Counted from the first letter of the stretch, positions 33,323-47,688 are shown. The stretch: DNA of 64,000 nucleotides from Candidatus Trichofilum aggregatum (GCA_016716885.1 JADJUV010000025.1:2688-66687); one strand, 5' to 3'. Notes: generated from the letters alone by a model not told the origin. Program-made: numbers and translations.

Positions 33323-33436
33323 CGATCTTTCACCATCATCATGCCCCGTGCATGACATTTACCCTTGAGCCACCAAAAAAATTCGGGCAAGGCGTGATTT
33401 CTTTCGGTGGACTCATTATTTGGAGAACCATTTATT

Positions 33437-36184
33437 ATGACGCAAACAGTCTCATCCAGAGCACATGACATTCTAGGCGTTCAACGCAAACCTTTGGATG
33501 CCATTTTCGCTCCCCGGAGCGTAGCCGTGATTGGCGCAACCGCTAAAGCTGACAGCGTGGGGCGCACGATTCTGTGGAATCTGATCAGCAATCCGTTTGG
33601 GGGCACGGTTTACCCGGTCAACCCCAAATACAATAGTGTCTTGGGCATCCGCGCCTATCCCAATGTGGCTGCCATTCCGGAGCCGGTAGACCTGGCCGTT
33701 ATCGTTACCCCATCCACCAGTGTGCCGGCGCTCATGCAGGAGTGCGCTGATGCCGGAGTACGCGGCGCTATCATTATTTCCGCCGGGTTCAAAGAAACAG
33801 GGCCAGAAGGGGTGGAGTTAGAGCGACAGGTATTGGAAATTGCCCGTAAAGCGCAGATGCGCGTTATTGGCCCTAACTGCCTGGGGGTGATGAGTCCGGT
33901 GAGTGGCTTAAACGCCACCTTTGCTGGGGGCATGGCCCGCCGTGGTAATGTCGGTTTTATCAGCCAGAGCGGCGCTTTGCTGACGGCTATTCTGGACTGG
34001 AGCTGGCGGCAAAATGTGGGTTTTAGTGCCTTTGTGTCGGTAGGTTCGATGTTGGATGTGGGTTGGGGGGATTTGATCAATTACCTGGGCAATGATCCCA
34101 ATACGCAGAGTATTGTCATTTACATGGAAACGATTGGTGATGCGCGGGCCTTTATTTCGGCGGCGCGGGAAGTGGTGTTTACCAAGCCAATTATTATCAT
34201 TAAACCAGGACGGACGGCGGATGCGGCCAAAGCGGCCGCGTCGCATACTGGCTCATTGACGGGTAGTGACGAGGTGTTAGAGGCGGCTTTCCGCCGTTGT
34301 GGCGTTTTACGGGTGAACGAGATTTCGGACCTGTTTGATCTGGCGGAAGTGTTGGCGAAACAGCCGCGGCCGCGAGGCCCACGCCTTACCCTCATTACCA
34401 ACGCCGGTGGACCAGCCGTGCTCGCCACCGACAGCCTCATCCTTAATGGGGGTGAACTGGCCCAACTCTCCCCGGAAACGGTTGAAGCCCTGAATCAAAT
34501 TTTGCCTGCCCACTGGAGTCATAACAACCCGGTCGATATTTTGGGGGATGCCGGAGCCAAACGGTACGCCGATACCCTGGACATCATCGCCAATGACCCC
34601 AATAGTGACGGGGCCTTGATTATTTTGACGCCCCAAGATATGACCGATGCCACTCAGACAGCCCAGGAGATCAAAACCCGCTTTGGTCGCCCGGCGACAT
34701 CCGGGGTGGGTAAGCCGGTGTTGGCGAGTTGGATGGGTGGTCAGTCGGTGATAGCCGGGGAGACGATTCTCAATGAAGCCAATATTCCTACATACCCTTA
34801 CCCGGACACAGCTACCCGTATTTTTGCCTATATGTGGATGTATAGCCGCCGGATGAAGTTCCTTTATGAGACGCCAGAGTTTATCGCGGAGGTGGAAGGG
34901 CAGGATCCGCCCCGGGTGGTGGCTGAAAGGATTATTGAACAAGTGAGGAAACGCGGCCGCACGCTCCTCACGGAATATGAATCCAAACAGATTTTTAACG
35001 CCTATGGTATCCCCACTGTGGCTACCCATCTGGCGGCTGATGAAAATACCGCTATCCATATCGCCAACGAATTGGGTTATCCGGTGGTGCTCAAAATAAA
35101 CTCTGAAACCATCACCCATAAAGTAGATGTGGGCGGGGTAAAGCTCAACCTGGCGGATGAAAAAGCCGTGCGTCAAGCCTTCCGAGCCATTAAAAAAAGT
35201 GTGACCGAAAAGGTAGGGCGCAAAGATTTTCAGGGTGTGACTGTTCAGCCGATGGCTAAATTGGATGGTTATGAAATCATCATCGGCAGTAGCCTTGATC
35301 CCCAGTTTGGCCCGGTGCTTTTGTTTGGGTCGGGGGGGTCGTTGGTAGAGGTGTACAAGGATAGTGCCCTGGGTTTACCGCCGATGAATAGCACGTTGGC
35401 CCGGCGTATGATGGAGCGGACGAAGATTTACAAGGCGTTGCAGGGGGTTCGCGGCCGCGCTTCCGTCAACATGGCCGAGTTAGAAGCGATTATCGTCCGG
35501 TTCAGCCAGTTGGTGGTGGAGCAACCCTGGATACAGGAGATAGACATTAACCCTCTGCTGGCTTCAGAAGAGCGGTTATTGGCTCTGGATGGTCGCATTC
35601 TGCTGCATCCCCTGGAAACCCGCCTGGAAGACATCCCCGGCCCGGCAGTGCGCCCTTATCCCAGCCAATATGTGAGCCAATGGACCACCAAACTGGGCGA
35701 ACCGGTCACCATTCGTCCCATCCGCCCCGATGATGAGCCACTCATCGCCAAATTCCACCAAACGCTTTCCGATGAGAGCGTATACATGCGTTATTTCCGT
35801 AGTCTCAAACTAGATACGCGTGTGGCTCATGAGCGGTTGACCCGTATTTGTTTCATTGACTATGACCGAGAAATGGCTCTGGTCGCCGAACGCCAAAACC
35901 CCGAAAATGGCGAACGGGAAATCATGGCGATTGGTCGGTTGAGTAAGCAACTATATGGCAATGAAGCTGAGTTTGCCCTATTGGTAAACGATCAATACCA
36001 GGGGCATGGGTTGGGTAAAGAATTACTGCAACGGCTGATTCAGGTAGGTAAGGATGAAAAGATGGAGCGAATTGTGGGGTTTGTTTTGCCGGAGAATACG
36101 GCTATGAAAGCCATCTCCCAGAAACTAGGTTTCCAGATGCATATCAGCCAGGGAGTCGTGGAAGCGGTGTTGCCTTTGTCGTAA
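33437..36184 (+). CDS. Pat/PatZ-like protein: ADP-forming acyl-CoA synthetase domains fused to a C-terminal GNAT
   Basis: CoA-binding start ([10 protein letters not shown]), succinyl-CoA-synthetase-like and ATP-grasp regions, then a GNAT ([17 protein letters not shown]). GGAGA RBS before ATG 33437. Confidence 0.85.
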
Positions 36185-36223
36185 GGTAAAAGGATAAGGG
36201 TCGCGGCCGCGAAATCAAAATTA

Positions 36224-36275
36224 GCTGTTGGGGAACTCAGCGGGTTGCCCCAGAATTCCCCAACAGCCAATTTTG
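36224..36275 (+). terminator. Stem-loop after the Pat-like gene
   Basis: GCTGTTGGGGAA (36224-36235) pairs with TTCCCCAACAGC (36256-36267), followed by CAATTTT. Confidence 0.6.
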
Positions 36276-36593
36276 GTTCATTCGTATCATTCGTGGAAAA
36301 ACCATTTTGTTTCTGATATGCCCAGGTTTTGGTACTTTATGTTACAATAATGATGCCTCGGTTGGTTGGTCTCTATGCTCGGCATCAACTTGATGAATTG
36401 TCTGCCCTGAGCAAACATCTACGCAACACCTACTTCCCACCTCGTTGCGTATCCCGCCTTGACGCTTTCATAAAGAGAAATATTGGGAACGTGTGCAATT
36501 TGCTCAGTTTAGATATGACAAATATCACTCCCCAGTCCCAATAACAAAGGTAACATCATTCACGCATTCACATAGGCTAATGGGTGAATTTTC

Positions 36594-36621
36594 ATGACAG
36601 ACTCAGTATCGCGAGTATAAT
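36594..36621 (+). promoter_or_regulatory. Candidate promoter of the cytochrome operon
   Basis: ATGACA, 16-nt spacer, TATAAT (36616-36621), 55 nt upstream of ATG 36677 within a ~490-bp AT-richer spacer. Confidence 0.4.
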
Positions 36622-36676
36622 GGGCTGAACCGTAATTGTCAGTTCCAGTGTCATAACTGAATGGAGGAATGTCGTT

Positions 36677-37954
36677 ATGCGGCGAACCATCTTGATACTT
36701 TTGGCTTTTATCGCGGCCGCATCTTTTCTCACGGCCTGTATTGAACAACCAGGTCCCATGGGGCCTGCTGGCCCACTAGGGGACCAAGGCCCCCCTGGTC
36801 CCGAAGGCAGTGTGGGTCAAACCGGTGCACCCGGCACACCCGGTCGTGATGGGGCCAGCTATGTTCCGCCCGCCTTTGTTGGTAGTGAAACCTGTGCTGA
36901 ATGCCATGAGAGTATTTACACCGTCTTCCAACAAAGTGGTCACCCCTGGAAACTAACCCCCGTTGTCAATGGCGAACCGCCTGACTATCCCTTCAGTAGC
37001 ATCCCCAGACCACCCGAAGGTTATACCTGGGACGACATCAGCTATGTAATTGGGGGATACAACTGGAAAGCTCGTTTCCTTGATCAGCAAGGTTATATCA
37101 TCACCGGAACGGATGAAAATGCGACGACGCAATACAATCTGCCCAACGATGAATTGGGAACCAATGGTGGCTGGGTTGGGTATCATGCGGGCGAGGCCAA
37201 CTTGTCCTATGATTGCGGAGCCTGTCACACCACTGGTTATAGCCCTGAAGGTCATCAGGATGGGTTGCCCGGCATTGAAGGAACCTGGGCCTTCCCCGGT
37301 GTTCAATGTGAAGAATGTCATGGGCCGGGCAGTCTACATGCTAACCACCCGATGGCTTATGGGATGGAAATAGAGCGGGACGCGGCCGCGTGCGGCGAGT
37401 GTCATGTCCGTGGTGACTTTACCGAAGTTAATGCTGGTGATGGGTTCATTCAGCATCATGAACAATACGAAGAGTTATTCCAGAGTAAACACGCCGTTAT
37501 AGATTGTGTTTTATGCCACGACCCCCATTCCGGTGTTGTCCAACTACAAGAAGCGGGCGAACAAACCACCCGTACCCTCTGTGAAAACTGCCATTTCAAA
37601 CAGGCAGAAAACCAGAACAACGAAGTTCACAAAAGCCTGACCATCGAATGTGTTCAGTGCCATATGCCTCGACTCGTTCGTAGTGCGGAAGGCGACGCGG
37701 CCGCATTCACAGGGGACATTCGCACCCACATGGTCGCCATTGACCCCACCCAGATCAGCCAGTTCAGCGAAGACGGTACGGTGGCCCTGTCCCAGATTTC
37801 TCTGGATTATGCCTGTCGTACCTGCCATCGTCCTGATGGTCTTGGTCTCCCTAAAACAGATGAAGAGTTACTCCAGGTAGCTATTAATTATCACATCCCC
37901 GTACCTGCACCGGTTGAAGCACCTGCTGAGGCCACCGCGACAACAACACCGTAA
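36677..37954 (+). CDS. Octahaem c-type cytochrome lipoprotein with an N-terminal collagen-like Gly-X-Y stalk
   Basis: Lipobox FLTAC and 11 consecutive GXY triplets. Eight CXXCH motifs: CAECH, CGACH, CEECH, CGECH, CVLCH, CENCH, CVQCH, CRTCH. GGAGG RBS. Confidence 0.9.
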   Translation: MRRTILILLAFIAAASFLTACIEQPGPMGPAGPLGDQGPPGPEGSVGQTGAPGTPGRDGASYVPPAFVGSETCAECHESIYTVFQQSGHPWKLTPVVNGEPPDYPFSSIPRPPEGYTWDDISYVIGGYNWKARFLDQQGYIITGTDENATTQYNLPNDELGTNGGWVGYHAGEANLSYDCGACHTTGYSPEGHQDGLPGIEGTWAFPGVQCEECHGPGSLHANHPMAYGMEIERDAAACGECHVRGDFTEVNAGDGFIQHHEQYEELFQSKHAVIDCVLCHDPHSGVVQLQEAGEQTTRTLCENCHFKQAENQNNEVHKSLTIECVQCHMPRLVRSAEGDAAAFTGDIRTHMVAIDPTQISQFSEDGTVALSQISLDYACRTCHRPDGLGLPKTDEELLQVAINYHIPVPAPVEAPAEATATTTP

Positions 37955-37965
37955 GGAGAATTAAG

Positions 37966-39615
37966 GTGCTTCGTCAACGTAGCCGTTTTTTCCCTCTGCT
38001 TTTAACTACACCAGCCCTGTTGTTTATAATGGGGTTGGTGTGGTATTGGCTGGCGCCTTCGTCCGCGGCCGCATCTTCAGCCACCCTTCACCCGTCTATG
38101 GGGATAACCCAGGTAATGGCCCAAACCGAGCCAACTCCGCAACCGGCCGATGATAGTGCCTGTCGGCTCTGTCACAGCGACACGACGGCCCAAATCACGT
38201 TTCCCTCTGGTGAGACGCTACCGGTTCAAGTAACCCTGGACGAGTTGGATAGTTCGGCTCACGGTCAGCACAGCGAGGCCAACCTGGCCTGTACCTCTTG
38301 CCATGCCCCGGCCGAATATCAATATCCTCATCAGCCCATTGAAGCACCGGACCTCCTTTCCTACCAGTTAGCCCAATCTCAGGCTACTTGCGAACGATGT
38401 CACCAAAACGCGCATATTACCAGCCATGAGGAAATTGATGATGTAGCTCCCGTCACCTGCGTCTCCTGCCATTCAGCCCATGATGTCCAGGTTAAAGAGG
38501 CCTGGCATGAAGGGGAAGGGGTAGAAGAGAGTTGTGTGGCCTGTCATGAGAGCAATGAGGTGGGGGTTCGCGGCCGCGCCGAACTCACTCAAGTCATCCA
38601 AAACGGCTTATTCACCACCACCGCCCCCACCAATACCTACTGTGCTTCCTGCCACAGCCTGGAAAACTTCTCGCTCACCCTTGCCAGCGGCGAACTTCTA
38701 GACCTGACCGTTACCGAGGACACCTTAGCCCATTCTGTTCATGGCGAAGGCAACGAATGGCAAGCCCTGGCCTGTGTAGATTGCCACGATGGTTATAGTT
38801 TCCCTCATGAGCCAGTCACCGCTGAAAATCTGCGTGCCTATAGCCTGGAAAAATACCCCGCTTGTGCTGAATGTCACCAACCTAAATACGATCAAGCTCA
38901 GGACAGCGTCCATGCTATCGCTCTAGAAGAAGGTACGTTGGAAGCCGCCGTTTGTACCGATTGCCACGGAGCGCATGACACCCCACCGCCCGCCGAACCC
39001 CGTGAACGCATTGCCCAAACCTGCCGCCAATGTCATAGCACCATCTTTGATGAATATGCCGAAAGCGTTCATGGCGAAGCCCTTCTCAGCGAAGGCAACG
39101 AAGATGTGCCCACCTGTACCGATTGTCACGGCGTTCATAACATTAACGACCCCACAACGGCCCTTTTCCGTGTGCGTTCCCCTGAGTTGTGTGCCAGTTG
39201 TCACGCTGACAACGAATTGATGAACAAATACGAAATCTCGACCGAGGTCTTTGATACATACGTGGCCGATTTTCACGGTACAACCGTCACACTGTTTGAG
39301 CATCAAGACCCAAACGTTGAGACTAACAAAGCGGTTTGTTACGATTGTCATGGTGTTCATGACATTCAAAAACCGGACGATCCTGAATCAGGTATCAAGA
39401 ACAACCTGCTCGAAACCTGTCGCCAATGCCATCCTGACGCCACGGAAAACTTCCCTGACTCCTGGACGAGCCACTTCCGGCCATCCCTGGATAACAACCC
39501 CCTGGTCTATCTCGTAAACTCGTTTTACTGGGTCGTGATTCCGGGAACGCTGGGGTTCTTTGGTTTTCTGGTTGTGACAGATATTTACCGGCGTTTCATT
39601 CTGCGCCGTCGTTAA
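37966..39615 (+). CDS. 14-haem c-type cytochrome with N-terminal signal/anchor and C-terminal TM helix
   Basis: Fourteen CXXCH motifs, many in repeated S-x-HG...C-x-x-CH-G-x-H modules. C-terminal LVYLVNSFYWVVIPGTLGFFGFLVVTDIYRRFILRRR. GTG start after AAGGAGA. Confidence 0.9.
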   Translation: MLRQRSRFFPLLLTTPALLFIMGLVWYWLAPSSAAASSATLHPSMGITQVMAQTEPTPQPADDSACRLCHSDTTAQITFPSGETLPVQVTLDELDSSAHGQHSEANLACTSCHAPAEYQYPHQPIEAPDLLSYQLAQSQATCERCHQNAHITSHEEIDDVAPVTCVSCHSAHDVQVKEAWHEGEGVEESCVACHESNEVGVRGRAELTQVIQNGLFTTTAPTNTYCASCHSLENFSLTLASGELLDLTVTEDTLAHSVHGEGNEWQALACVDCHDGYSFPHEPVTAENLRAYSLEKYPACAECHQPKYDQAQDSVHAIALEEGTLEAAVCTDCHGAHDTPPPAEPRERIAQTCRQCHSTIFDEYAESVHGEALLSEGNEDVPTCTDCHGVHNINDPTTALFRVRSPELCASCHADNELMNKYEISTEVFDTYVADFHGTTVTLFEHQDPNVETNKAVCYDCHGVHDIQKPDDPESGIKNNLLETCRQCHPDATENFPDSWTSHFRPSLDNNPLVYLVNSFYWVVIPGTLGFFGFLVVTDIYRRFILRRR

Positions 39616-39623
39616 GGGGAAAC

Positions 39624-40493
39624 ATGGAAAAAACTGTGCCACAACCTGCAAAAGTCTATCCACGCTTTCGCCTGGGCGCTCGCATTGAGCACTTTATCCT
39701 GATGACCTCATTCACCGTTCTGGGGGTAACCGGATTGGCGCAAAAATATGCGGTCATTGCCCCGGGCGAATGGCTCATTGATGTGATGGGTGGTATTGAG
39801 CTGACAAGATGGATTCACCGCCTGGCCGCTGTCGTTCTGGTTCTAGGGTCTGCTTATCATTTGCTGACATCTGCCTATCGTCTATTTGTGAAGCATGAAC
39901 AGATGCAAATGATTCCTGATAAGAAAGATTTGCAGGATATGCTGGATACGATTCGCTACAACCTGGGTTTGATAAAGCAGCATCCTAAAATGCGAAAGTT
40001 TAATTTTGGCGAGAAATTTGAGTATTGGGCGGTTGTTTGGGGCACGCTCATTATGGCCATTACTGGGTTTGTTTTGTGGAACCCTATCGCGTTTTCCTCA
40101 GTATTTCCTGGGCAACTTATACCGATGGCCAAAGCCGCTCATGGTGGTGAAGCGTTGTTAGCTGTGCTCGCCATTATTCTCTGGCACATGTACAACGTTC
40201 ATATTAAACATTTCAATCCCAGTATCTTTACCGGCAATCTTCCCCGTCATCAGATGGAGGAGGAACATGCCTTAGAACTGGAGCGGTTAGAGGCAGGAGA
40301 GCCACCCTGGCCCGAACTGGCTCTGCCGGTTTTGCAAAGACGCTTACGGGTTTTTGTGGTTGCTAGTATCCTGGTCAGTATTGTTGTTGTTGCTGTTGTG
40401 GTATGGGCCATCACGTTTGAAGAGACAGCTATTACGACCATACCCCGTGTAACGCGTGAAATTTTTGTCCCAGCGGGAACCACAGTCCCATAA
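39624..40493 (+). CDS. Dihaem cytochrome b membrane subunit (FdnI/HydC-like family)
   Basis: Four to five TM helices with conserved His pairs (IEHFILM, WIHRLAAVVLVLGSAYHLL, AHGGEALLAVLAIILWHMYNVH). Starts 8 nt after the upstream stop. Confidence 0.8.
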   Translation: MEKTVPQPAKVYPRFRLGARIEHFILMTSFTVLGVTGLAQKYAVIAPGEWLIDVMGGIELTRWIHRLAAVVLVLGSAYHLLTSAYRLFVKHEQMQMIPDKKDLQDMLDTIRYNLGLIKQHPKMRKFNFGEKFEYWAVVWGTLIMAITGFVLWNPIAFSSVFPGQLIPMAKAAHGGEALLAVLAIILWHMYNVHIKHFNPSIFTGNLPRHQMEEEHALELERLEAGEPPWPELALPVLQRRLRVFVVASILVSIVVVAVVVWAITFEETAITTIPRVTREIFVPAGTTVP

Positions 40494-40574
40494 ACAGTTG
40501 TTCAAGAAACTCATTTATCGGATTGAACGATTGTTTATAGTCTTGACTGCTCCCGTTTAGTAAGGAGGAAGGCA

Positions 40575-42831
40575 ATGAAGCATCACAGAATAAGGCCCTA
40601 CTTGCTAGGGGGGTTGCTTCTGCTGTTTTCTCTGATCCTGGTCGCCTGTTCCCAAGAGCCGGAAACAGTAGTTGAAACCCGAGTTGTCGAAGTTACCGTA
40701 GAAGTTCCGGGTGAAACGATTACAGAAGAGGTCGAAGTTACCCGGGTTGTGGAGGTTGCGCCAGAAGTACCGGCGGGACCTTCTGTACCGTATGAAGAGC
40801 AGTGGGCATCCTCAGCTCATGCTGACGCCAGCGCGGAAGCGTTTGTGCATTGGAATGAGGAAGACCCGGCTGAAGTGCCGGATCGGTGCGCCAAATGCCA
40901 TAGCACCCCTGGCTTCCAGGATTTCCTGGGAGCGGATGGGAGTGAAGCTGGTGTTGTGAACGCGGCCGCGCCCATCGGCTCAACCGTTGAATGTGTGGCT
41001 TGTCACAACGAAGTTGCCTCTCACCTGGATAGTGCGGTTTTCCCCTCCGGGGCTGAACTCACTGGTTTAGGGCCAGAAGCGCGTTGTATTCAGTGTCATC
41101 AGGGCCGCGCATCTACTGTACAGGTCAATGACTCCATCGCCACTGCCGGTCTGACGGAAGCGGACGAGGACGTGGTGAGTGAGGATTTGGGCTTTACCAA
41201 TATTCACTACTTCGCGGCCGCGGCTACTCAATACGGCACCTCGGTCATGGGCGGTTACGAATATGTTGGCAATGCCTACGATGCCCGTTTTGACCATGTC
41301 GAGCCATACAACACCTGCGTGGACTGTCATGATCCCCATACCCTGGAAGTCAAACTCGACGAATGTGTCGTCTGTCATGAAGGCGTTGAAGACGCTGAAG
41401 ATTTGGTAGACATCCGTATGGTTGGCTCCCTGGTCGATTATGATGGCGATGGCGATATGGAAGAAGGAGTTTACTTCGAAATCGAAGGATTGCGTGACAT
41501 GCTTTATCAAGCAATGCAAGCCTATGCTACCGAAGTTCCTGGTACAGCTATCGTTTATGACGAGGCAAACCATCCCTACTTCTTCATTGATAGCAACGGC
41601 GACGGCATTACCGATGAAGCCGAAGTCAACGGCGACAATCGCTTTCAATGCCTGGACAGCCCGTTTAGCCAAAGCGGCTTACAACTACCAGGTTTCCCTC
41701 AAGGATCCGGGTCGTTTCGCGCATGGTGGCAAATATATCATCCAGTTACTGTATGACTCTATCGAAAACCTGAATGCGGGTATGACCACCCCGGTTGACT
41801 TGACCAATGCCAATCGGCTAGATCGAGGCCACTTTGCGGCTTCCGAAGAAGCGTTCCGTCATTGGGATGGTGAAGAAGATGGTGGCATTGTGCCTGGCAC
41901 ATGTAGCCGTTGCCATTCTGCTGCTGGTCTGCCTCTGTTCGTGACCCAGGGCGTAGCCATTAATCAACCCGCTTCCGGCGGTTTGAACTGTGCCACCTGC
42001 CACAATGACCTGACCACCTTCACCCGCTATGAAGTAGCAACCGTGCCCTTCCCCAGTGGTGTCAGACTGACCAATCCGGAAGAAGACCTGGACAGCAACT
42101 TGTGTATCTCCTGTCATCAGGGCCGTGAATCTACGGCTAGTGTCAACCGATTAATCGGTGGTCTGGCCGACGATGAAGTTTCCGAAAATCTGCGCTTCTT
42201 AAATATCCATTACTTTGCCGCTGGTGCTACGCTGTTTGGCACGGAAGCGAAGGGTGCGTATGAATATGAAGGTCAGACATACGTAGGACGCAATGAGCAT
42301 GTAGGGGCGTTCAATAGCTGTAATGAATGCCATGACACCCATGCGTTGGAAGTACAGGTTGAAGAGTGTGCTGACTGCCACGAAAGTGTTGCTTCGGCGG
42401 AAGATCTGGTAAACATCCGTTTTGAGGAAAACACCATTGATTACGATGGCGATGGCGATGTTACTGAAGGTATTGCTCTGGAAATCGCAACAATGAAAGA
42501 GCAGTTGTATGCCGCCATGCAAGTGTATGCCACGGAAACCGTAGGCACCGGCATTCTCTACTCTGAGGCGGCTTATCCGTACTATTTTGCTGATGCAAAT
42601 GGTAACGGCGTGGCTGATCCCGAAGAGCTGAATAATGATGGTCGTTATAACACCTGGTCACCGCGTTTACTCCGGGCCGCGTACAATTACCAGTATGTGA
42701 CCAAGGACACAGGTGCGTTTGCTCACAATGGTCTGTATGTCTTGCAACTCCTGTATGACGGTCTAACCGACTTGGGAGCAGACACCAGTGCCATGACCCG
42801 CCCCGAAGTACCAGCGCCAGCGGCGGAATAA
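40575..42831 (+). CDS. Decahaem c-type cytochrome lipoprotein made of two tandem 5-haem modules, frame broken at TTT 41643-41645
   Basis: Lipobox LILVAC. Module 1 has CAKCH, CVACH, CIQCH, CVDCH, CVVCH; module 2 has CSRCH, CATCH, CISCH, CNECH, CADCH. ORF 40575..41756 and ORF 41422..42831 join as GDNRF|NAWTARLAKAAYNYQ, matching module 2 (NDGRYNTWSPRLLRAAYNYQ). Confidence 0.85.
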
Positions 42832-42920
42832 TTACCCTAACATTATCCCTAGTCCACTGGCTTGAAACCGGAACAGGCATACAGGTGTACGAGCCAGTGG
42901 GTTAGGGGAAAACAGAAAAT

Positions 42921-42954
42921 AAAAATGGGCACCATGTGCCCATTTTTGTTTTCT
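42921..42954 (+). terminator. Intrinsic terminator of the cytochrome operon
   Basis: AAAAATGGGCAC, loop CAT, GTGCCCATTTTTGTTTT. Perfect 8-bp GC-rich stem flanked by A and T runs. Confidence 0.85.
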
Positions 42955-43108
42955 TCCGTCTATTCATCAATGCTCTGTGCTGCTTGCTACAATTTGGCTT
43001 ATCTGACGCTTTGCGTCAAAATTACCTTTCAGGATTTATGGTTAGCACACCATCAGCGTTAGTGCTTCATGAACCTATCCCCTGCATTAACACTTGTTGG
43101 AGGCTTTG

Positions 43109-44944
43109 ATGCGCAAGAAAGTTTTGTTTGCCCTGCTTTTATTTAGCTTGTTCCTGTTGGCCGCTTGTCAGCAGGACAATAACTCCCCAGAAACGGTGGT
43201 CACCCGCATTGTGACCAGCACGAATGAAGTCGTTGTCACTGAAGTTATTACTCAGGAAACGGTGGTTACTCGTGTTGTTGTTGAAGAGCGACTCGTTACA
43301 CCTACACCTACTCCTTTGCCTGCGGGTGGTGAAATTGTTACCGCCTCTCTGGCCGATATCCGTAGTTTGAACCCGGTTCTTAGTAATGATGGTGCATCTA
43401 GCACCGTCACCAGTCAACTTTTTGTGAGCCTGTTGGCCCTTGATGCGCAGACCGGCGCCTTAATGCCGCGCGCGGCCGCGGATTGGACCGTGTCTGAGGA
43501 TGGCCTCACCTACACCTTTAACTTACGCCAGGACATTGCCTGGAGTGACGGCACGCCTCTCACCGCCGATGATGTCGCGTTTACCTTCCAGGCCATCACT
43601 ACCCCTGAGCTAAACTCTCCACACCTGGCTAACTTCGTCAATATCACCCGTTGGCAGGTGGCGAATGCGAACACCCTTGTTGTTGAACTGGGTGCACCTG
43701 ATTGCACGGCCATTTATGCGTTTAATGTGGGCCTGATTCCGGCGCACATATATAACAACGATCCCCTCAATATCCTTGATAGTGAGGAAAACCTGGCTCC
43801 AACGGTCACATCTGGGCCATTCCTTTTTGGGGAATACCAACCGGGGCAGCAGGTGCGCCTGGTGGCAAATCCGACTTATTATGCCGGGCAACCGGTCGTA
43901 AATAGTTGGACGATGAAGATTTACCCCAATGCCATTCCCATGTTGAACGATCTTTTGGCCGGAACCATTGATTACACTACCGTAGATGCGGAGTTTGTGG
44001 GGCGTGTGGAGAGTGCGATGGCGCGGGGAGCTGATGTAGAAATCAATAAGTGGTTTGTCAACGGCTTCACCTATCTGGCGTTTAATCTGGCTGATCCGGC
44101 CAATCCGCAAAATGGCTGGCTGGATGAAAATGAGGATGGCGTGTATAACCCTGGTGAACCAGTGCAGACCCAGGATCCACATCCGGTGCTGAGTGATCTG
44201 GCGGTGCGGCAGGCCATCGCCTTGGCCCTTGATTATGATGACATTATCAGTCAGGCGGTTTATGGGCAAGGTGGCCGCATTGTGGCGGATATTTCACCGG
44301 CGATTGATTGGGCTTATAATGATGCCTTGACACCCTATGAACCAGATATGACGCAGGCTGTTGCCCTGTTGGATGGGGCGGGCTGGGCCTTGGTTGAACC
44401 AGAAGATGAGGAGTTGCCCGCGATTCGGGCCAAGGGGGATGTGCCCCTGGCGCTGACGATTACTTTGAATGCGGGTAACCCTAGCCGGGAACAGGTAGCG
44501 CTGCTGGTGGCGGAGCAGTTGGGGAAACTTGGCTTTGCCATAACAGTCGAAGTTTTGCCGTTTGATGAGGCGGTGTTGAAATTGCGTAATCAGACCTTTG
44601 ACATGGCCGTGGCGGGCTGGTTAGATGTGAACCCGGAGCCGGATGATAGTAATTTTCTCTCGTACACGCAGGATACGGTAGGGATGGGTTTTAATTTCGC
44701 CTCGTATTACAATGAAGCGGTGGAAGATAATTTGGCTCGCGGCCGCAGTGTGGCTGGTTGCGCGGCCGCAGACCGGGCCTCGTTCTATCAGACAAATCAG
44801 GAACTGGTTTATCAGGACATTCCCTACATCCCCCTCTATGCTCCGCTGGTCAATGTCGTTTGGAGTACCCGGTTGCAGAACTTTCACCCCAGCGGTTGGA
44901 ACCTTTTTGCTAATGTGCATGAGTGGTATGTGATTGATCACTAA
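43109..44944 (+). CDS. ABC transporter substrate-binding lipoprotein (family 5, peptide/nickel type)
   Basis: MRKKVLFALLLFSLFLLAAC lipobox, V/T/E-rich tether, then family-5 SBP features (LNPVLSNDGASS, WSDGTPLTADDV, YTFNLRQD). No permease or ATPase genes adjacent. Confidence 0.85.
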   Translation: MRKKVLFALLLFSLFLLAACQQDNNSPETVVTRIVTSTNEVVVTEVITQETVVTRVVVEERLVTPTPTPLPAGGEIVTASLADIRSLNPVLSNDGASSTVTSQLFVSLLALDAQTGALMPRAAADWTVSEDGLTYTFNLRQDIAWSDGTPLTADDVAFTFQAITTPELNSPHLANFVNITRWQVANANTLVVELGAPDCTAIYAFNVGLIPAHIYNNDPLNILDSEENLAPTVTSGPFLFGEYQPGQQVRLVANPTYYAGQPVVNSWTMKIYPNAIPMLNDLLAGTIDYTTVDAEFVGRVESAMARGADVEINKWFVNGFTYLAFNLADPANPQNGWLDENEDGVYNPGEPVQTQDPHPVLSDLAVRQAIALALDYDDIISQAVYGQGGRIVADISPAIDWAYNDALTPYEPDMTQAVALLDGAGWALVEPEDEELPAIRAKGDVPLALTITLNAGNPSREQVALLVAEQLGKLGFAITVEVLPFDEAVLKLRNQTFDMAVAGWLDVNPEPDDSNFLSYTQDTVGMGFNFASYYNEAVEDNLARGRSVAGCAAADRASFYQTNQELVYQDIPYIPLYAPLVNVVWSTRLQNFHPSGWNLFANVHEWYVIDH

Positions 44945-45062: not shown

Positions 45063-45539
45063 ATGGCAGACGTCAAACAAATTTTGGTGGTGGATGATCA
45101 TTTTGAGATGCTGGAGTTTATGCGGACGGTGTTGCAGCACAGCGGCCGCGACTACCAGGTATTGGCTGTTCCCTCAGCCGAAGAAGGGATGCTGGAACTG
45201 CTCCGTACTCCCTTTGATCTGCTCATTACCGATGTCCGTCTGCCCGGCATGAGCGGTTTTGATCTCATTCGCCGCGTGCGCCGCGCCCGGCCAGAATTGC
45301 CCGTGATTATGATTTCTGGGTATGGCATTGAACAAGGGCAAAAAGAAGCGGCCGCGTTGGGGGTGGTTCATTATTTTGTCAAACCCCTGGATAGTGACTT
45401 GTTGCTGCTCACGGTTCAACGAACCTTATTTGGTGAACCTGTTGGAAGAACCACCCGCGCCGGAGCCAACACCTGCGCCTGTCGCAGTTCCCTTATGCCC
45501 TCGGCCTCATCTACCGTGAGCGTTGATTGTTACCATTAA
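45063..45539 (+). CDS. CheY-like receiver-domain protein
   Basis: ILVVDDHFEMLEF, LLITDVRLPGMSG and HYFVKP receiver motifs. The C-terminal ~35 aa are of doubtful frame. Confidence 0.8.
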   Translation: MADVKQILVVDDHFEMLEFMRTVLQHSGRDYQVLAVPSAEEGMLELLRTPFDLLITDVRLPGMSGFDLIRRVRRARPELPVIMISGYGIEQGQKEAAALGVVHYFVKPLDSDLLLLTVQRTLFGEPVGRTTRAGANTCACRSSLMPSASSTVSVDCYH

Positions 45540-46810
45540 TCAGCGGTTGCACACCTTGCGCAACGAAATTAGCGCCACCTATGTTGTTCTGGCAGATGCC
45601 AGCGGCCGCATCCAAACTGATTCTGGCATGGGAAAGGGGCTGGCCCTCCTGACCTGCTCAATACCGTGGCTACCAGCCTGCGCCACAACCAGCTCCTGGC
45701 CGAGCAGTTAGGCAACCAGGATGCCATTACGCTGCAATATCAATCAGGCACGAAAGCGGAACTCTATGCCATGAGCGTAGGGGATGCCTATCAGATTCTT
45801 ATCTTTTTTACGGCGGAAACCCGCCGCGGCCGCGTAGGCACTGTCTGGGTATTCGCCCAACGTTTGGTCAAAGAGTTGCTGCCGCTACTCCCCACCAGGG
45901 CAGCGACTCCCTTTGCCCCTGCGCCTGAGGCGCCGACAATCCTCCACGAACTGTCACCCAGGCCCGAAGAGTCGCCGATTTGCCCGATTTTCCATCCAAA
46001 ACACCGCTTCTCAGGTGGAAAGAGCGCTGTCTGATCGTGTGCGCACTCCCACCCGTGCCCCCAGTTACCTCGCCAGAAGCACCCTCCCCCAACCTTGGTT
46101 CCCGCCGAATTTATCCTGGAAGCAAATGAATCAGCCGATGCCGCCACGCTGAACAACTTTTGGGATCAGGCGGTCGAAGAGAGCACGGCCGGTAATGGAG
46201 AGGCGTTCTCCTTTGCTGAGGCGATGCGTCAGGGTCTCATACCCGGTGGGTTGGTCCAGTCTCAAGAGAGTGGTGATGAGGCGGCGGAGGCGGCTCTGGC
46301 AGAATGGCTCGATTTGTCTGATGAGGCTATGCCAGATGAGATGCCGGAAGATTGGTTAGATGACGCGGCCGCGGCGGAACCTGTACCTGGTGATGGTTTA
46401 TCCTTTGCCGAAGCGATGAGCCTCGGTTTGTTGCCTGGTGAACTGACACAAGAATCATCAGGTACCCCGGATGATGCCGCTCTGGCTAATCTGTTTCCTT
46501 GGCCCCGGAAGAAGCCCTCGACCTGGATGCTTTTGGGATGAGGCCATTAACCAGAGCCGGGAAGACCGGGTCAGGCGGATTCCTTCCCCCAGGTTCAAGG
46601 GTCTCATGCAGGGGTGATGATGAGATGTCTATGGACCTGGACGCTTTGTTAAACACGCCGTAGACAGCGCGCTAGACCTGGACGCCCTTTGGGCCAGTGC
46701 GGTTACGGATGAACAAGGGGATGCGGCCGCGACCACTGGCCTTTCTCTAGCTGAAGCCGGGCGAGAAAGGGCTTTTCAAAGCGGATTCGGCCTGGGAGGA
46801 AAGCGAGTAG
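45523..46810 (+). pseudogene. Frame-hopping remnant: Roadblock/LC7-like domain followed by Pro-rich and acidic repeat modules
   Basis: Sensible peptide alternates among frames: INQRLHTLRNEISATYVVLADASGRIQTDSG, then PDLLNTVATSLRHNQLLAEQLG...ILIFFTAETRRGRVG, then repeated LDLDAFWDEAI / FSFAEAMRQGLIPG / LSFAEAMSLGLLPG / GLSLAEAGRE units. At least five frame changes or stops. Confidence 0.5.
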
Positions 46811-47550: not shown

Positions 47551-47688
47551 TGTGCCCGTGGGGCCGGTGATGACTGGGTCCCTGGCGGCGGGGGCCGTCG
47601 AACCGTGTCAGGTCCGGAAGGAAGCAGCACTAAGGCGTATCCCTCGGGTGACCAGGAAAACCTGGTGATCATCGGTCTCATGGGCACA
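47551..47688 (+). ncRNA. ffs: Signal recognition particle RNA (4.5S type)
   Basis: Contains GTCAGGTCCGGAAGGAAGCAGC, identical to the universally conserved domain IV core. 5' TGTGCCCGTGG pairs with 3' CTCATGGGCACA. Followed by T7. Confidence 0.9.

Follow-up and report, generated by a model that had tools for sequence, protein, structure and literature searches.

The window analysed here is a 64,000-nucleotide stretch of DNA from Candidatus Trichofilum aggregatum (GCA_016716885.1 JADJUV010000025.1:2688-66687). Between positions 36677 and 42831 it carries four genes, which we call g1 to g4, encoding three multihaem c-type cytochromes and a dihaem b-type cytochrome. They make up an operon that recurs in the same order across Chloroflexota, and on balance we read it as a quinone-coupled multihaem conduit for outward extracellular electron transfer. 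Anaerolineae and related groups count among the most abundant bacteria of wastewater plants, sediments and bioelectrochemical reactors. Multihaem cytochromes are plentiful in their genomes, with the pathway undefined, and the operon is a concrete candidate for the coupling of quinone to external redox reactions.

Organization of the operon

The features of the operon and its flanks are as follows.

36677-37954, plus strand: g1, open reading frame of 425 amino acids (aa) with eight CXXCH motifs
37966-39615, plus strand: g2, open reading frame of 549 aa with 14 CXXCH motifs
39624-40493, plus strand: g3, open reading frame of 289 aa without cysteine
40575-41645, plus strand: first part of g4, in frame 0; lipobox Cys25, tether, and pentahaem module 1 with its helical bundle
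41644-42831, plus strand: second part of g4, in the +1 frame; end of the module 1 helical bundle, then pentahaem module 2
41643-41645, plus strand: site of the g4 frameshift, a TTT run with one extra T compared to close relatives
36215-36276, plus strand: upstream hairpin, folding free energy -33.5 kcal/mol, z -6.2, followed by UUUUGGUU
36594-36621, plus strand: candidate sigma-70-type promoter, ATGACA-16 nt-TATAAT, 11 of 12 consensus matches
42914-42957, plus strand: intrinsic terminator, folding free energy -28 kcal/mol, z -6.6, with a GC-rich stem and a U-rich tail

A GGAGG-type Shine-Dalgarno sequence lies upstream of all four starts, and the g1-g2, g2-g3 and g3-g4 gaps are 11, 8 and 81 nucleotides respectively, just as an initial annotation of the window had described. 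That annotation also placed a candidate promoter in an AT-richer leader and a strong terminator beyond g4, and both are found. The leader (36185-36676, 492 bp) is 43.9% G+C compared with 52.2% for the operon. The promoter hexamers and their spacing are kept in a homologous locus with ~80% identity in g1 (L004), where ATGCCA-17-TATAAT stands at the aligned leader position and the flanks have diverged. A consensus scan found the sequence no richer in matches than shuffled sequence, so the support for the promoter is modest. An Rfam scan of the 492-nucleotide leader gave no match. None of 200 shuffled sequences folds as well as the upstream hairpin, which is likely the terminator of the preceding acetyl-CoA synthetase/acetyltransferase gene and would mark the 5' limit of the transcription unit. 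The stem of the downstream terminator pairs GGGCAC with GTGCCC and is lengthened by A:U pairs. With four same-strand genes between two strong hairpins, g1-g4 is a real operon.

A dihaem cytochrome b and its predicted 14-haem partner

The g3 protein exceeds the gathering cutoff of Pfam family PF01292 (Ni_hydr_CYTB), scoring 42.1 bits against 30.1 over residues 14-197, and it aligns with E. coli FdnI (chain 1kqf_C, E = 1.3e-12) along the four FdnI helices. H23, H65, H173 and H188 of g3 align with the FdnI haem ligands H18, H57, H155 and H169 respectively, and are invariant in 52 members of the family. The loop KFNFGEK, almost invariant in the family, aligns with KYNAGQK of FdnI, a loop that together with H169 we take to line the menaquinone/2-heptyl-4-hydroxyquinoline N-oxide site on the cytoplasmic side. 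The initial annotation had called g3 a FdnI/HydC-type cytochrome b with four to five helices. That assignment is borne out, with transmembrane helices at 21-39, 64-82, 142-160, 168-186 and 243-261. The fifth helix is followed by a conserved extracytoplasmic C-terminal tail, and in g3-like relatives 1, 4, 8 or 10 CXXCH motifs are fused after it. These fusions indicate that the C-terminus of g3 is outside, and that the b module works directly with c haems.

We considered g3 as a subunit of a formate dehydrogenase, and rejected this. Its scores of 67.4 bits with TIGR01583 and 57.4 bits with NF007558 compare with cutoffs of 115.85 and 339 respectively, and the operon includes no molybdopterin, FdnG or FdnH-type gene.

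The g2 protein begins with an N-terminal signal or anchor and ends in a hydrophobic helix (~513-541) followed by RRFILRRR, a positive cytoplasmic tail. The C-terminal transmembrane helix was scored as present in 67 of 74 homologues. Exactly 14 histidines outside the CXXCH motifs are invariant in an alignment of 22 sequences, matching the number of haems. The best solved relative of g2 is MtrA (chain 6r2q_A, E = 4e-8), and there is sub-threshold similarity to the NrfB and DmsE models. We predict that g2 is the partner of the g3 cytochrome b. Protein searches returned 7847 database clusters homologous to g2, together with 2170 for g1 and 4861 for g4. The homologues of all three are annotated merely as 'cytochrome c3 family', 'multiheme c-type cytochrome' or 'hypothetical'.

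An OcwA-like octahaem lipoprotein with a collagen-like segment

The initial description of g1 as an 8-haem lipoprotein and of g2 as a 14-haem cytochrome with a C-terminal helix agrees with the open reading frames, the CXXCH counts and the g1 lipobox (LTAC, Cys21). It missed what follows that lipobox, a run of 11 uninterrupted Gly-X-Y triplets (aa 26-59). In an alignment of 34 g1 sequences the glycines at 29, 32 and onward to 59 are invariant, X and Y are free to vary, and whole triplets are the sole type of indel in the segment. Between 11 and 15 triplets are present in 116 of 120 homologues, beginning 0-8 residues past the lipobox cysteine; the other four homologues are of double length and have 15-16 haems. 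Proline occupies 44% of X positions, and Y is mainly Pro, Ala, Gln or Asp. The family profile matches collagens (E = 4e-7). The window sequence alone scores 24.1 bits with the Pfam collagen model, just below the cutoff of 27.2, and g1 gives weak matches to Streptococcus Scl models. We predict that g1 trimerises via this collagen-like stalk.

Like g1, the collagen-like proteins Scl1/Scl2 of Streptococcus, BclA of Bacillus and phage fibres have Gly-X-Y repeats with Pro-rich X and polar or charged Y. By comparison the g1 segment is short (11-15 triplets), and it lies between a lipid anchor and a multihaem cytochrome. A literature search for collagen-like multihaem cytochromes found no paper, and within the literature searched such an arrangement is undescribed. 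If the stalk is real, it would be a new way to set the distance of a redox protein across the cell wall.

The cytochrome part of g1 is homologous to OcwA of Thermincola (6i5b), with E = 1.7e-13 for the single sequence and 1.2e-18 for the family profile. Residues 63-249 align with OcwA 12-199, so that the homology covers the N-terminal ~190 residues and includes the beta-sheet insert; the C-terminal half aligns weakly. OcwA is a nonahaem surface reductase of a Gram-positive electrogen, with a beta-sheet insert and an NrfA-like helical bundle (PMC6703420). It has nine haems where g1 has eight. In addition g1 is lipid-anchored and carries its collagen-like stalk, which has no counterpart in the passages on OcwA that were consulted. 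The g1 profile also matches octahaem nitrite reductase (ONR), NrfA and MccA weakly (E = 1e-5 to 1e-3), and the protein carries the CHMP motif typical of the NrfA/ONR/OcwA superfamily. In the 34-sequence alignment 9-10 histidines outside the motifs are invariant, for eight haems, so that every haem may be bis-His. The Pfam MtrC/MtrF domain II/IV model matches both g1 and g2.

A tandem pentahaem lipoprotein and its frameshift

The g4 product has an LVAC lipobox (Cys25) and then a conserved Glu/Val/Thr-rich tether (aa 26-70). Frame 0 runs from 40575 to 41756 (stop at 41754-41756) and encodes 393 aa with five CXXCH motifs, of which the last ~36 residues are out of frame. The remaining five CXXCH motifs fall in the +1 frame, open as far as 42831. 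In place of the CGCTTTCAAT of the window, two relatives that are 97-99% identical (L001 and L002) have CGATTCAAT, i.e. one T fewer, and this difference is the only indel inside the 6.2-kb operon compared with L001. With one T deleted, the product has 751 aa and 10 haems and shares 99% identity with P0121 of the database. The two parts of g4 are joined in one frame in all relatives. In L001 g4 is intact with 751 aa, members of the family typically have 730-750 aa, and there are thousands of intact homologues. The 10-haem lipoprotein and the 32 c-type haem sites claimed at the outset therefore hold for the repaired gene, and the 10-haem protein for its relatives. They do not hold for the window as it reads: the extra T had been read through, there is no single open reading frame for g4, and the sites in exportable frames number 27.

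The insertion reflects either an assembly error or a recent inactivation, and we think the former likelier than a true pseudogene. Were the insertion at 41643 real, g4 would be truncated to a five-haem lipoprotein and the operon would be partly or wholly non-functional in this genome, which we think somewhat unlikely. Such decay would fit the absence of the extra T from L001, L002 and the thousands of intact homologues, as well as the lack of a signal peptide of its own in the second half of g4. Yet the insertion is the sole indel in an otherwise well-conserved operon and is located in a T run, and g1, g2 and g3 are intact and identical or nearly so to those of relatives. A neighbouring gene, the next but one, also bears on the question. 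At 45063-46541 there are three open reading frames (158, 122 and 148 aa) where L001 has a single 589-aa response regulator. This region differs from L001 by many single-base indels, a pattern typical of assembly error, and is either highly divergent or error-prone in its assembly. Programmed +1 frameshifting at UUU-C was also weighed, since a slip of tRNA-Phe to UUC would give back the conserved protein. It was set aside, as we see no stimulatory element and the extra base is missing from the relatives.

The repaired protein comprises two homologous modules, each with five CXXCH motifs and five invariant non-motif histidines at equivalent positions. In an AlphaFold2 model (predicted local distance difference test (pLDDT) score 74.7) each module has a haem-binding region followed by long helices. 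A Foldseek comparison of this model with the PDB gave a best E above 6, NrfA entries having TM-scores of 0.23-0.36, which are not significant, and the sequence profile gave no match to PDB sequences. With hhalign, the g4 haem core (101-274) aligns with the g1 core (174-310) at 96% probability. Thus g4 is a divergent, remote tandem member of the broad NrfA/ONR/OcwA superfamily, without a solved or characterised relative. The g4 family is large and lacks a solved structure; it and the g1 stalk are attractive for structural studies and as a means to read Chloroflexota activity in metatranscriptomes.

Some members of the g4 family are longer. Forms of ~1030-1080 aa (P0126, P0127, P0130, P0137 and P0156) probably have three modules; one of them is from Ca. 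Abyssubacteria, and lies at a contig end where its context is uninformative. Others of ~1260-1290 aa (P0129, P0143, P0151, P0153, P0207 and P0208) contain bacterial Ig-like (Big_2) domains, which points to surface exposure or adhesion in some lineages. The tether of g4 (encoded within 40575-40790) has repeats built on ETVVTRVV / VEVTRVVEV, with V32, T35 and E43 invariant in g4 homologues. A Glu/Val/Thr-rich segment of the same kind, with such repeats, stands right after the lipobox cysteine in the SBP_bac_5 solute-binding lipoprotein encoded downstream (43094-44944). The segment may be a Chloroflexota-specific envelope tether or a lipoprotein sorting element.

Conservation of the operon in Chloroflexota

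The distribution of g2 was followed with a pattern scan using one genome per species, and the resulting count is a lower bound. At least 584 genomes at species level, almost all of them Chloroflexota, encode a relative of g2. The best 80 loci come almost entirely from that phylum, from Promineifilaceae (including Ca. Promineofilum, Leptofilum and Leptovillus), Ardenticatenaceae, Caldilineaceae, Litorilinea and other Anaerolineae. For synteny we used the 41 loci that have a long-type g2 and room on both sides, and g1-g2-g3-g4 is collinear in 37 of them. Two of the four exceptions have g4 triplicated or inverted. In the other two (L005:12922-13944 and L039:9540-10619) g4 is replaced by a 6-haem protein of ~340-360 aa that is distantly similar to a g4 module. 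The substitute in L039 carries its own collagen-like segment (aa 23-73), and collagen stalks therefore recur in a second cytochrome family of these clusters. The operon is thus not a one-off but very widespread and conserved in Chloroflexota, which the initial annotation had missed.

The initial annotation noted that no catalytic molybdo-, copper- or sirohaem-containing subunit is encoded. In agreement with this, genes for molybdopterin, copper or sirohaem subunits are absent from the window and from the neighbourhood conserved in the 41 loci. Nor do these loci have a conserved non-cytochrome gene within or beside the four-gene unit, and no porin was seen, in a survey made without a dedicated porin predictor.

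The statement that the gene set corresponds to no characterised system also stands: a literature search found no description of the operon, nor of OcwA or CbcL in Chloroflexota. Reviews mention in general terms that multihaem cytochromes are abundant in Chloroflexota (bioRxiv 10.1101/2021.08.23.457424; PMC7399161), and cytochromes go unmentioned where Ca. Leptofilum, Leptovillus and Promineofilum are described. Within the literature searched there is no account of the operon, of the collagen-stalked cytochrome or of the g4 family.

Relation to known electron-transfer systems

Among proteins of known structure, g1 is related to OcwA, g2 to MtrA and g3 to FdnI, while g4 is unmatched. By analogy, the operon appears to resemble Geobacter CbcBA/CbcL joined to a Thermincola-type surface reductase, on a membrane plan like that of FdnH/FdnI.

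The initial annotation had invoked the logic of the Geobacter Cbc complexes, and as regards architecture this is sound. Like g2-g3, CbcBA and CbcL bring together a dihaem b quinone subunit and a multihaem cytochrome c facing away from the cytoplasm, and CbcA, like g2, is anchored by a C-terminal transmembrane helix (bioRxiv 10.1101/2021.04.15.440034). The likeness of g2-g3 to the CbcBA-type layout is one of architecture only, the proteins having been set beside CbcA and CbcB by their descriptions. The single-chain fusion of CbcL is not found. CbcL has an N-terminal c domain and a C-terminal six-helix b domain in one chain, whereas g2 and g3 are separate genes, and in the fused relatives of g3 the order is b then c, the reverse of that in CbcL. 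There are other distinctions. The c-type cytochrome has 14 haems in g2, compared with seven in CbcA and nine in CbcL. All four haem-ligand histidines of the FdnI pattern are borne by g3, whereas the fourth ligand of CbcB has been proposed to come from CbcA (bioRxiv 10.1101/2021.04.15.440034), and g3 has a fifth helix. Two lipoprotein cytochromes are co-encoded here, with no porin-cytochrome partner, in a host presumed to have no outer membrane. The b domain of CbcL has been described as HydC/FdnI-like, and among the CbcL homologues listed in a 2018 survey of quinol oxidases for extracellular electron transfer none is from Chloroflexi (PMC6295460). Fusions of cbcB and cbcA in Chloroflexi receive a single sentence in the CbcBA paper (bioRxiv 10.1101/2021.04.15.440034).

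The ImdcA-PdcA-CwcA-OcwA system of Thermincola is like the operon a multihaem chain across a cell wall without an outer membrane (PMC6703420, PMC7911101). Here, however, entry from the membrane is by a cytochrome b with a 14-haem protein rather than by ImdcA, there is no homologue of the OmcS-like CwcA, and all the parts lie in one operon. E. coli FdnH/FdnI (1KQF) shares with g2/g3 the four haem ligands, the quinone-site loop and a partner held by a single C-terminal helix. It differs in that a 14-haem cytochrome c takes the place of the iron-sulphur (FeS) subunit, there is no FdnG, and g3 has its fifth helix and outside tail.

With NrfA/NrfB/NrfH, octahaem nitrite reductase and MccA the similarity is remote, seen in the g1 profile, in the sub-threshold match of g2 to NrfB and in the resemblance of the g4 modules to the pentahaem-plus-helical-bundle plan. 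CXXCK, CX3-4CH and CX15CH motifs are absent from all four products. No NrfA-type model matches g1 or g4, and among the Nrf models of NCBIfam only NrfB and NrfH match g1-g4, far below their cutoffs. Compared with Shewanella MtrCAB, g2 resembles an MtrA-type linear haem wire, but there is no gene for the porin MtrB, and again an outer membrane is presumed to be absent from the host. In outline g4 is like MtrC, with ten haems in two modules, but has no detectable homology to it. The operon is therefore not a formate dehydrogenase gamma equivalog, a CbcL fusion architecture, an NrfA-type enzyme or a porin-cytochrome conduit.

Proposed electron path and its alternatives

The Chloroflexota host cell is presumed to lack an outer membrane. 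From the gene order, motifs, homologies, conservation and fusions observed we propose a complex with the following geometry, direction of flow and acceptors. g3 would exchange electrons with menaquinone at the site homologous to that on the cytoplasmic side of FdnI, and carry them across the membrane via its two b haems. g2 would be held to g3 by its C-terminal helix, as FdnH is to FdnI, with its 14-haem chain pointing outward. The ten haems of MtrA span ~8 nm, so the 14 of g2 could reach ~10-11 nm. At ~0.86 nm each, 11-15 collagen triplets would make a stalk of 9.5-13 nm, with ~9-10 nm for the 11 triplets of g1 in the window, and a triple helix would make g1 a trimer with 24 haems. The stalk would place the OcwA-like octahaem head at roughly the height that g2 reaches at its far end, and g4, as a lipid-anchored two-module tandem on its tether, would be a second head or a relay. 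Electrons would pass from menaquinol through the b haems to g2, thence to g1 and g4, and on to acceptors unable to enter the cell. Candidates are Fe(III)/Mn(IV) minerals, humic substances, electrodes and partner cells.

In this scheme outward flow from a quinol site on the cytoplasmic side would release protons inside and move electrons along the membrane field. The outward step would then be neutral for the proton motive force (pmf), or would consume it. This would suit low-potential acceptors, the niche proposed for CbcL/CbcBA. Flow in the opposite sense would generate pmf, as formate dehydrogenase-N does. Extracellular donors such as reduced humics, FeS or other low-potential minerals, cathodes or syntrophic partners would feed g1, g4 and g2 and then, via the b haems, menaquinone on the cytoplasmic side. 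The similarity of g3 to FdnI accords with this, FdnI being its closest relative and the anchor of a quinone-reducing redox-loop enzyme, and the quinone-site loop being kept. Many hosts respire O2, cathodic current has been obtained from Ardenticatena maritima, another member of the Chloroflexota (PMC5808234), and homologues of CbcL/MtoC/MtrH occur in metal reducers and metal oxidisers alike (PMC6295460). Against this, inward flow needs donors well below menaquinone, which excludes Fe(II) and Mn(II), whose oxidation cannot reduce menaquinone against the membrane potential. In the loci examined we see no linked gene for carbon fixation, nor any known oxidation gene, of the Cyc2 type or otherwise. 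Because electrons can run either way through a multihaem chain, direction is not readable from sequence alone. Taking these points together we regard electron uptake as quite unlikely.

The initial annotation saw in the operon a wire rather than an enzyme, and we too favour the wire from the pattern of motifs and conservation. Conserved non-motif histidines (14 for 14 haems in g2, 9-10 for eight in g1 and ten for ten in g4) provide a candidate sixth ligand for each of the 32 haems. None of the four products contains a CXXCK motif or reaches a curated NCBIfam cutoff, and no enzyme model comes near one. The stalk, the lipid anchors and tethers and the 14-haem chain are moreover hard to explain for a diffusible substrate. 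That part of the claim is therefore favoured, with the qualification that g1 and g4 fall, remotely, in a superfamily that includes enzymes. The operon could accordingly encode a quinol-dependent reductase, in which g3-g2 would be the quinol dehydrogenase (compare NrfH/NrfBCD), g1 and/or g4 would be catalytic, and the substrate would be nitrite, NO, hydroxylamine, sulfite, tetrathionate or a similar small molecule. To the weak enzyme matches and CHMP motif of g1 can be added the homology of the g4 haem core to that of g1 and the pentahaem-plus-helical-bundle form of the g4 modules, as in NrfA. OcwA itself reduces nitrite and hydroxylamine in vitro, but the nitrite turnover is just ~1 per minute (PMC6703420). 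Many of the hosts are predicted to use N-oxides (PMC10746286). With no significant enzyme match for g4 by either Foldseek or sequence profile, in addition to the features that favour a wire, a reductase seems unlikely.

Another function would be conduction or storage within filaments, the envelope haem network acting as a capacitor or a cell-to-cell conductor. The hosts are largely filamentous (Promineifilaceae, Caldilineaceae and Ardenticatenaceae; PMC10746286), each protomer set would bring 32 haems and a head predicted to be trimeric, and a comparable idea arose from the staining of haem along filaments of A. maritima (PMC5808234). However, the operon has no signature of polymerising cytochromes (OmcS/CwcA homology), and A. 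maritima does not have the operon. We consider this function very improbable.

Several points weigh against an outward conduit. All the family assignments of g1-g4 are computational. AlphaFold2 with the 34-sequence alignment gave a g1 model with a pLDDT of 44, in which the beta region 92-168 is the sole confident part, and g4 is frameshifted in the window as it reads. FdnI-type cytochromes b are best known from quinone-reducing enzymes, and inward flow is possible. The NrfA/ONR/OcwA superfamily, of which g1 and g4 are distant members, includes enzymes. OcwA has two high-spin, open haems despite having CXXCH motifs throughout, and reduces nitrite slowly (PMC6703420), so the count of conserved histidines does not prove that the haems are six-coordinate. 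Several host lineages have been described as aerobes or facultative anaerobes on O2 or N-oxides (Litorilinea aerophila; Ca. Leptofilum; PMC10746286). Lastly, Ardenticatena maritima is a cultured iron reducer of the Chloroflexota (PMC5808234), and we considered strain 110S as a characterised host; its largest cytochrome has seven haems, so it lacks the operon. While we retain the outward conduit as our preferred reading, a broader proposal is tentative, and possible rather than probable. This is that the operon, with its cytochrome b and a 14-haem wire rising ~10 nm, a trimeric head held at matching height through the cell wall by a collagen stalk, and a tandem pentahaem protein, is the main unrecognised electron-exchange route of filamentous Chloroflexota without an outer membrane, which abound in activated sludge, sediments and hot springs. 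The architecture would then be new.

Variants of the operon and neighbouring genes

In relatives, several genes recur beside the operon. These include genes for cytochrome c maturation, encoding CcmE, CcmF and a CcmH-like protein, together with a thioredoxin-like protein; the CcmH-like and thioredoxin-like assignments rest on a weak NrfF match and sequence motifs only. A second quinone module also recurs, in which an 8-haem cytochrome of ~310 aa is encoded along with an FeS protein like DsrO/QrcC and a membrane protein like QrcD/NrfD. A likely regulator is the GerE-type response regulator, which comes with a GAF-HisKA_3 kinase. Loci with the extended island are L016, L018, L022-L024, L033, L035, L064 and L084 (e.g. 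L084:9905-15266), where there is also a small open reading frame of ~130 aa. The full island occurs in addition in a record labelled Sulfomarinibacteraceae, which lies outside Chloroflexota. A window-wide tblastn search with the neighbour families found no ccm or NrfCD-like genes; the recurrent neighbour genes are not in this window.

The Caldilineaceae version of the operon has a 13-haem cytochrome and an N-terminally anchored, NrfH-like heptahaem protein inserted between g1 and g2 (L038, L040-L042, L046, L052, L053, L056, L057, L075 and L080). Where flanks are available they encode CcmE, CcmF, the CcmH-like and thioredoxin-like proteins and a 640-aa dihaem protein. L057, from a metagenome-assembled genome assigned to the cultured species Litorilinea aerophila, has the core of the Caldilineaceae version. 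We examined the 7-haem Caldilineaceae proteins of ~560 aa as possible cytochrome b fusions and rejected them, since their single helix is N-terminal, they start like NrfH/NapC and they lack homology to g3. In a short variant of the cluster, two 9-haem cytochromes accompany a g3-like cytochrome b that carries 1, 4, 8 or 10 fused c-haem motifs, and g4 is not adjacent. Short-variant and fusion loci are L055, L058, L060, L061, L065, L068, L074, L076, L077, L079 and L083, with L071, L078, L081 and L082.

The gene upstream of the operon (33407-36184) encodes a 925-aa protein like an ADP-forming acetyl-CoA synthetase fused to a C-terminal GNAT acetyltransferase. Its domains are CoA-binding, succinyl-CoA-ligase-like, ATP-grasp and GNAT, a layout as in Pat-type protein lysine acetyltransferases. 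A strong hairpin lies between this gene and the operon, and their adjacency is not kept in other genomes. Beyond the operon, positions 47572-47670 encode a bacterial small signal recognition particle RNA (RF00169, 70.5 bits), the sole Rfam match in the window.

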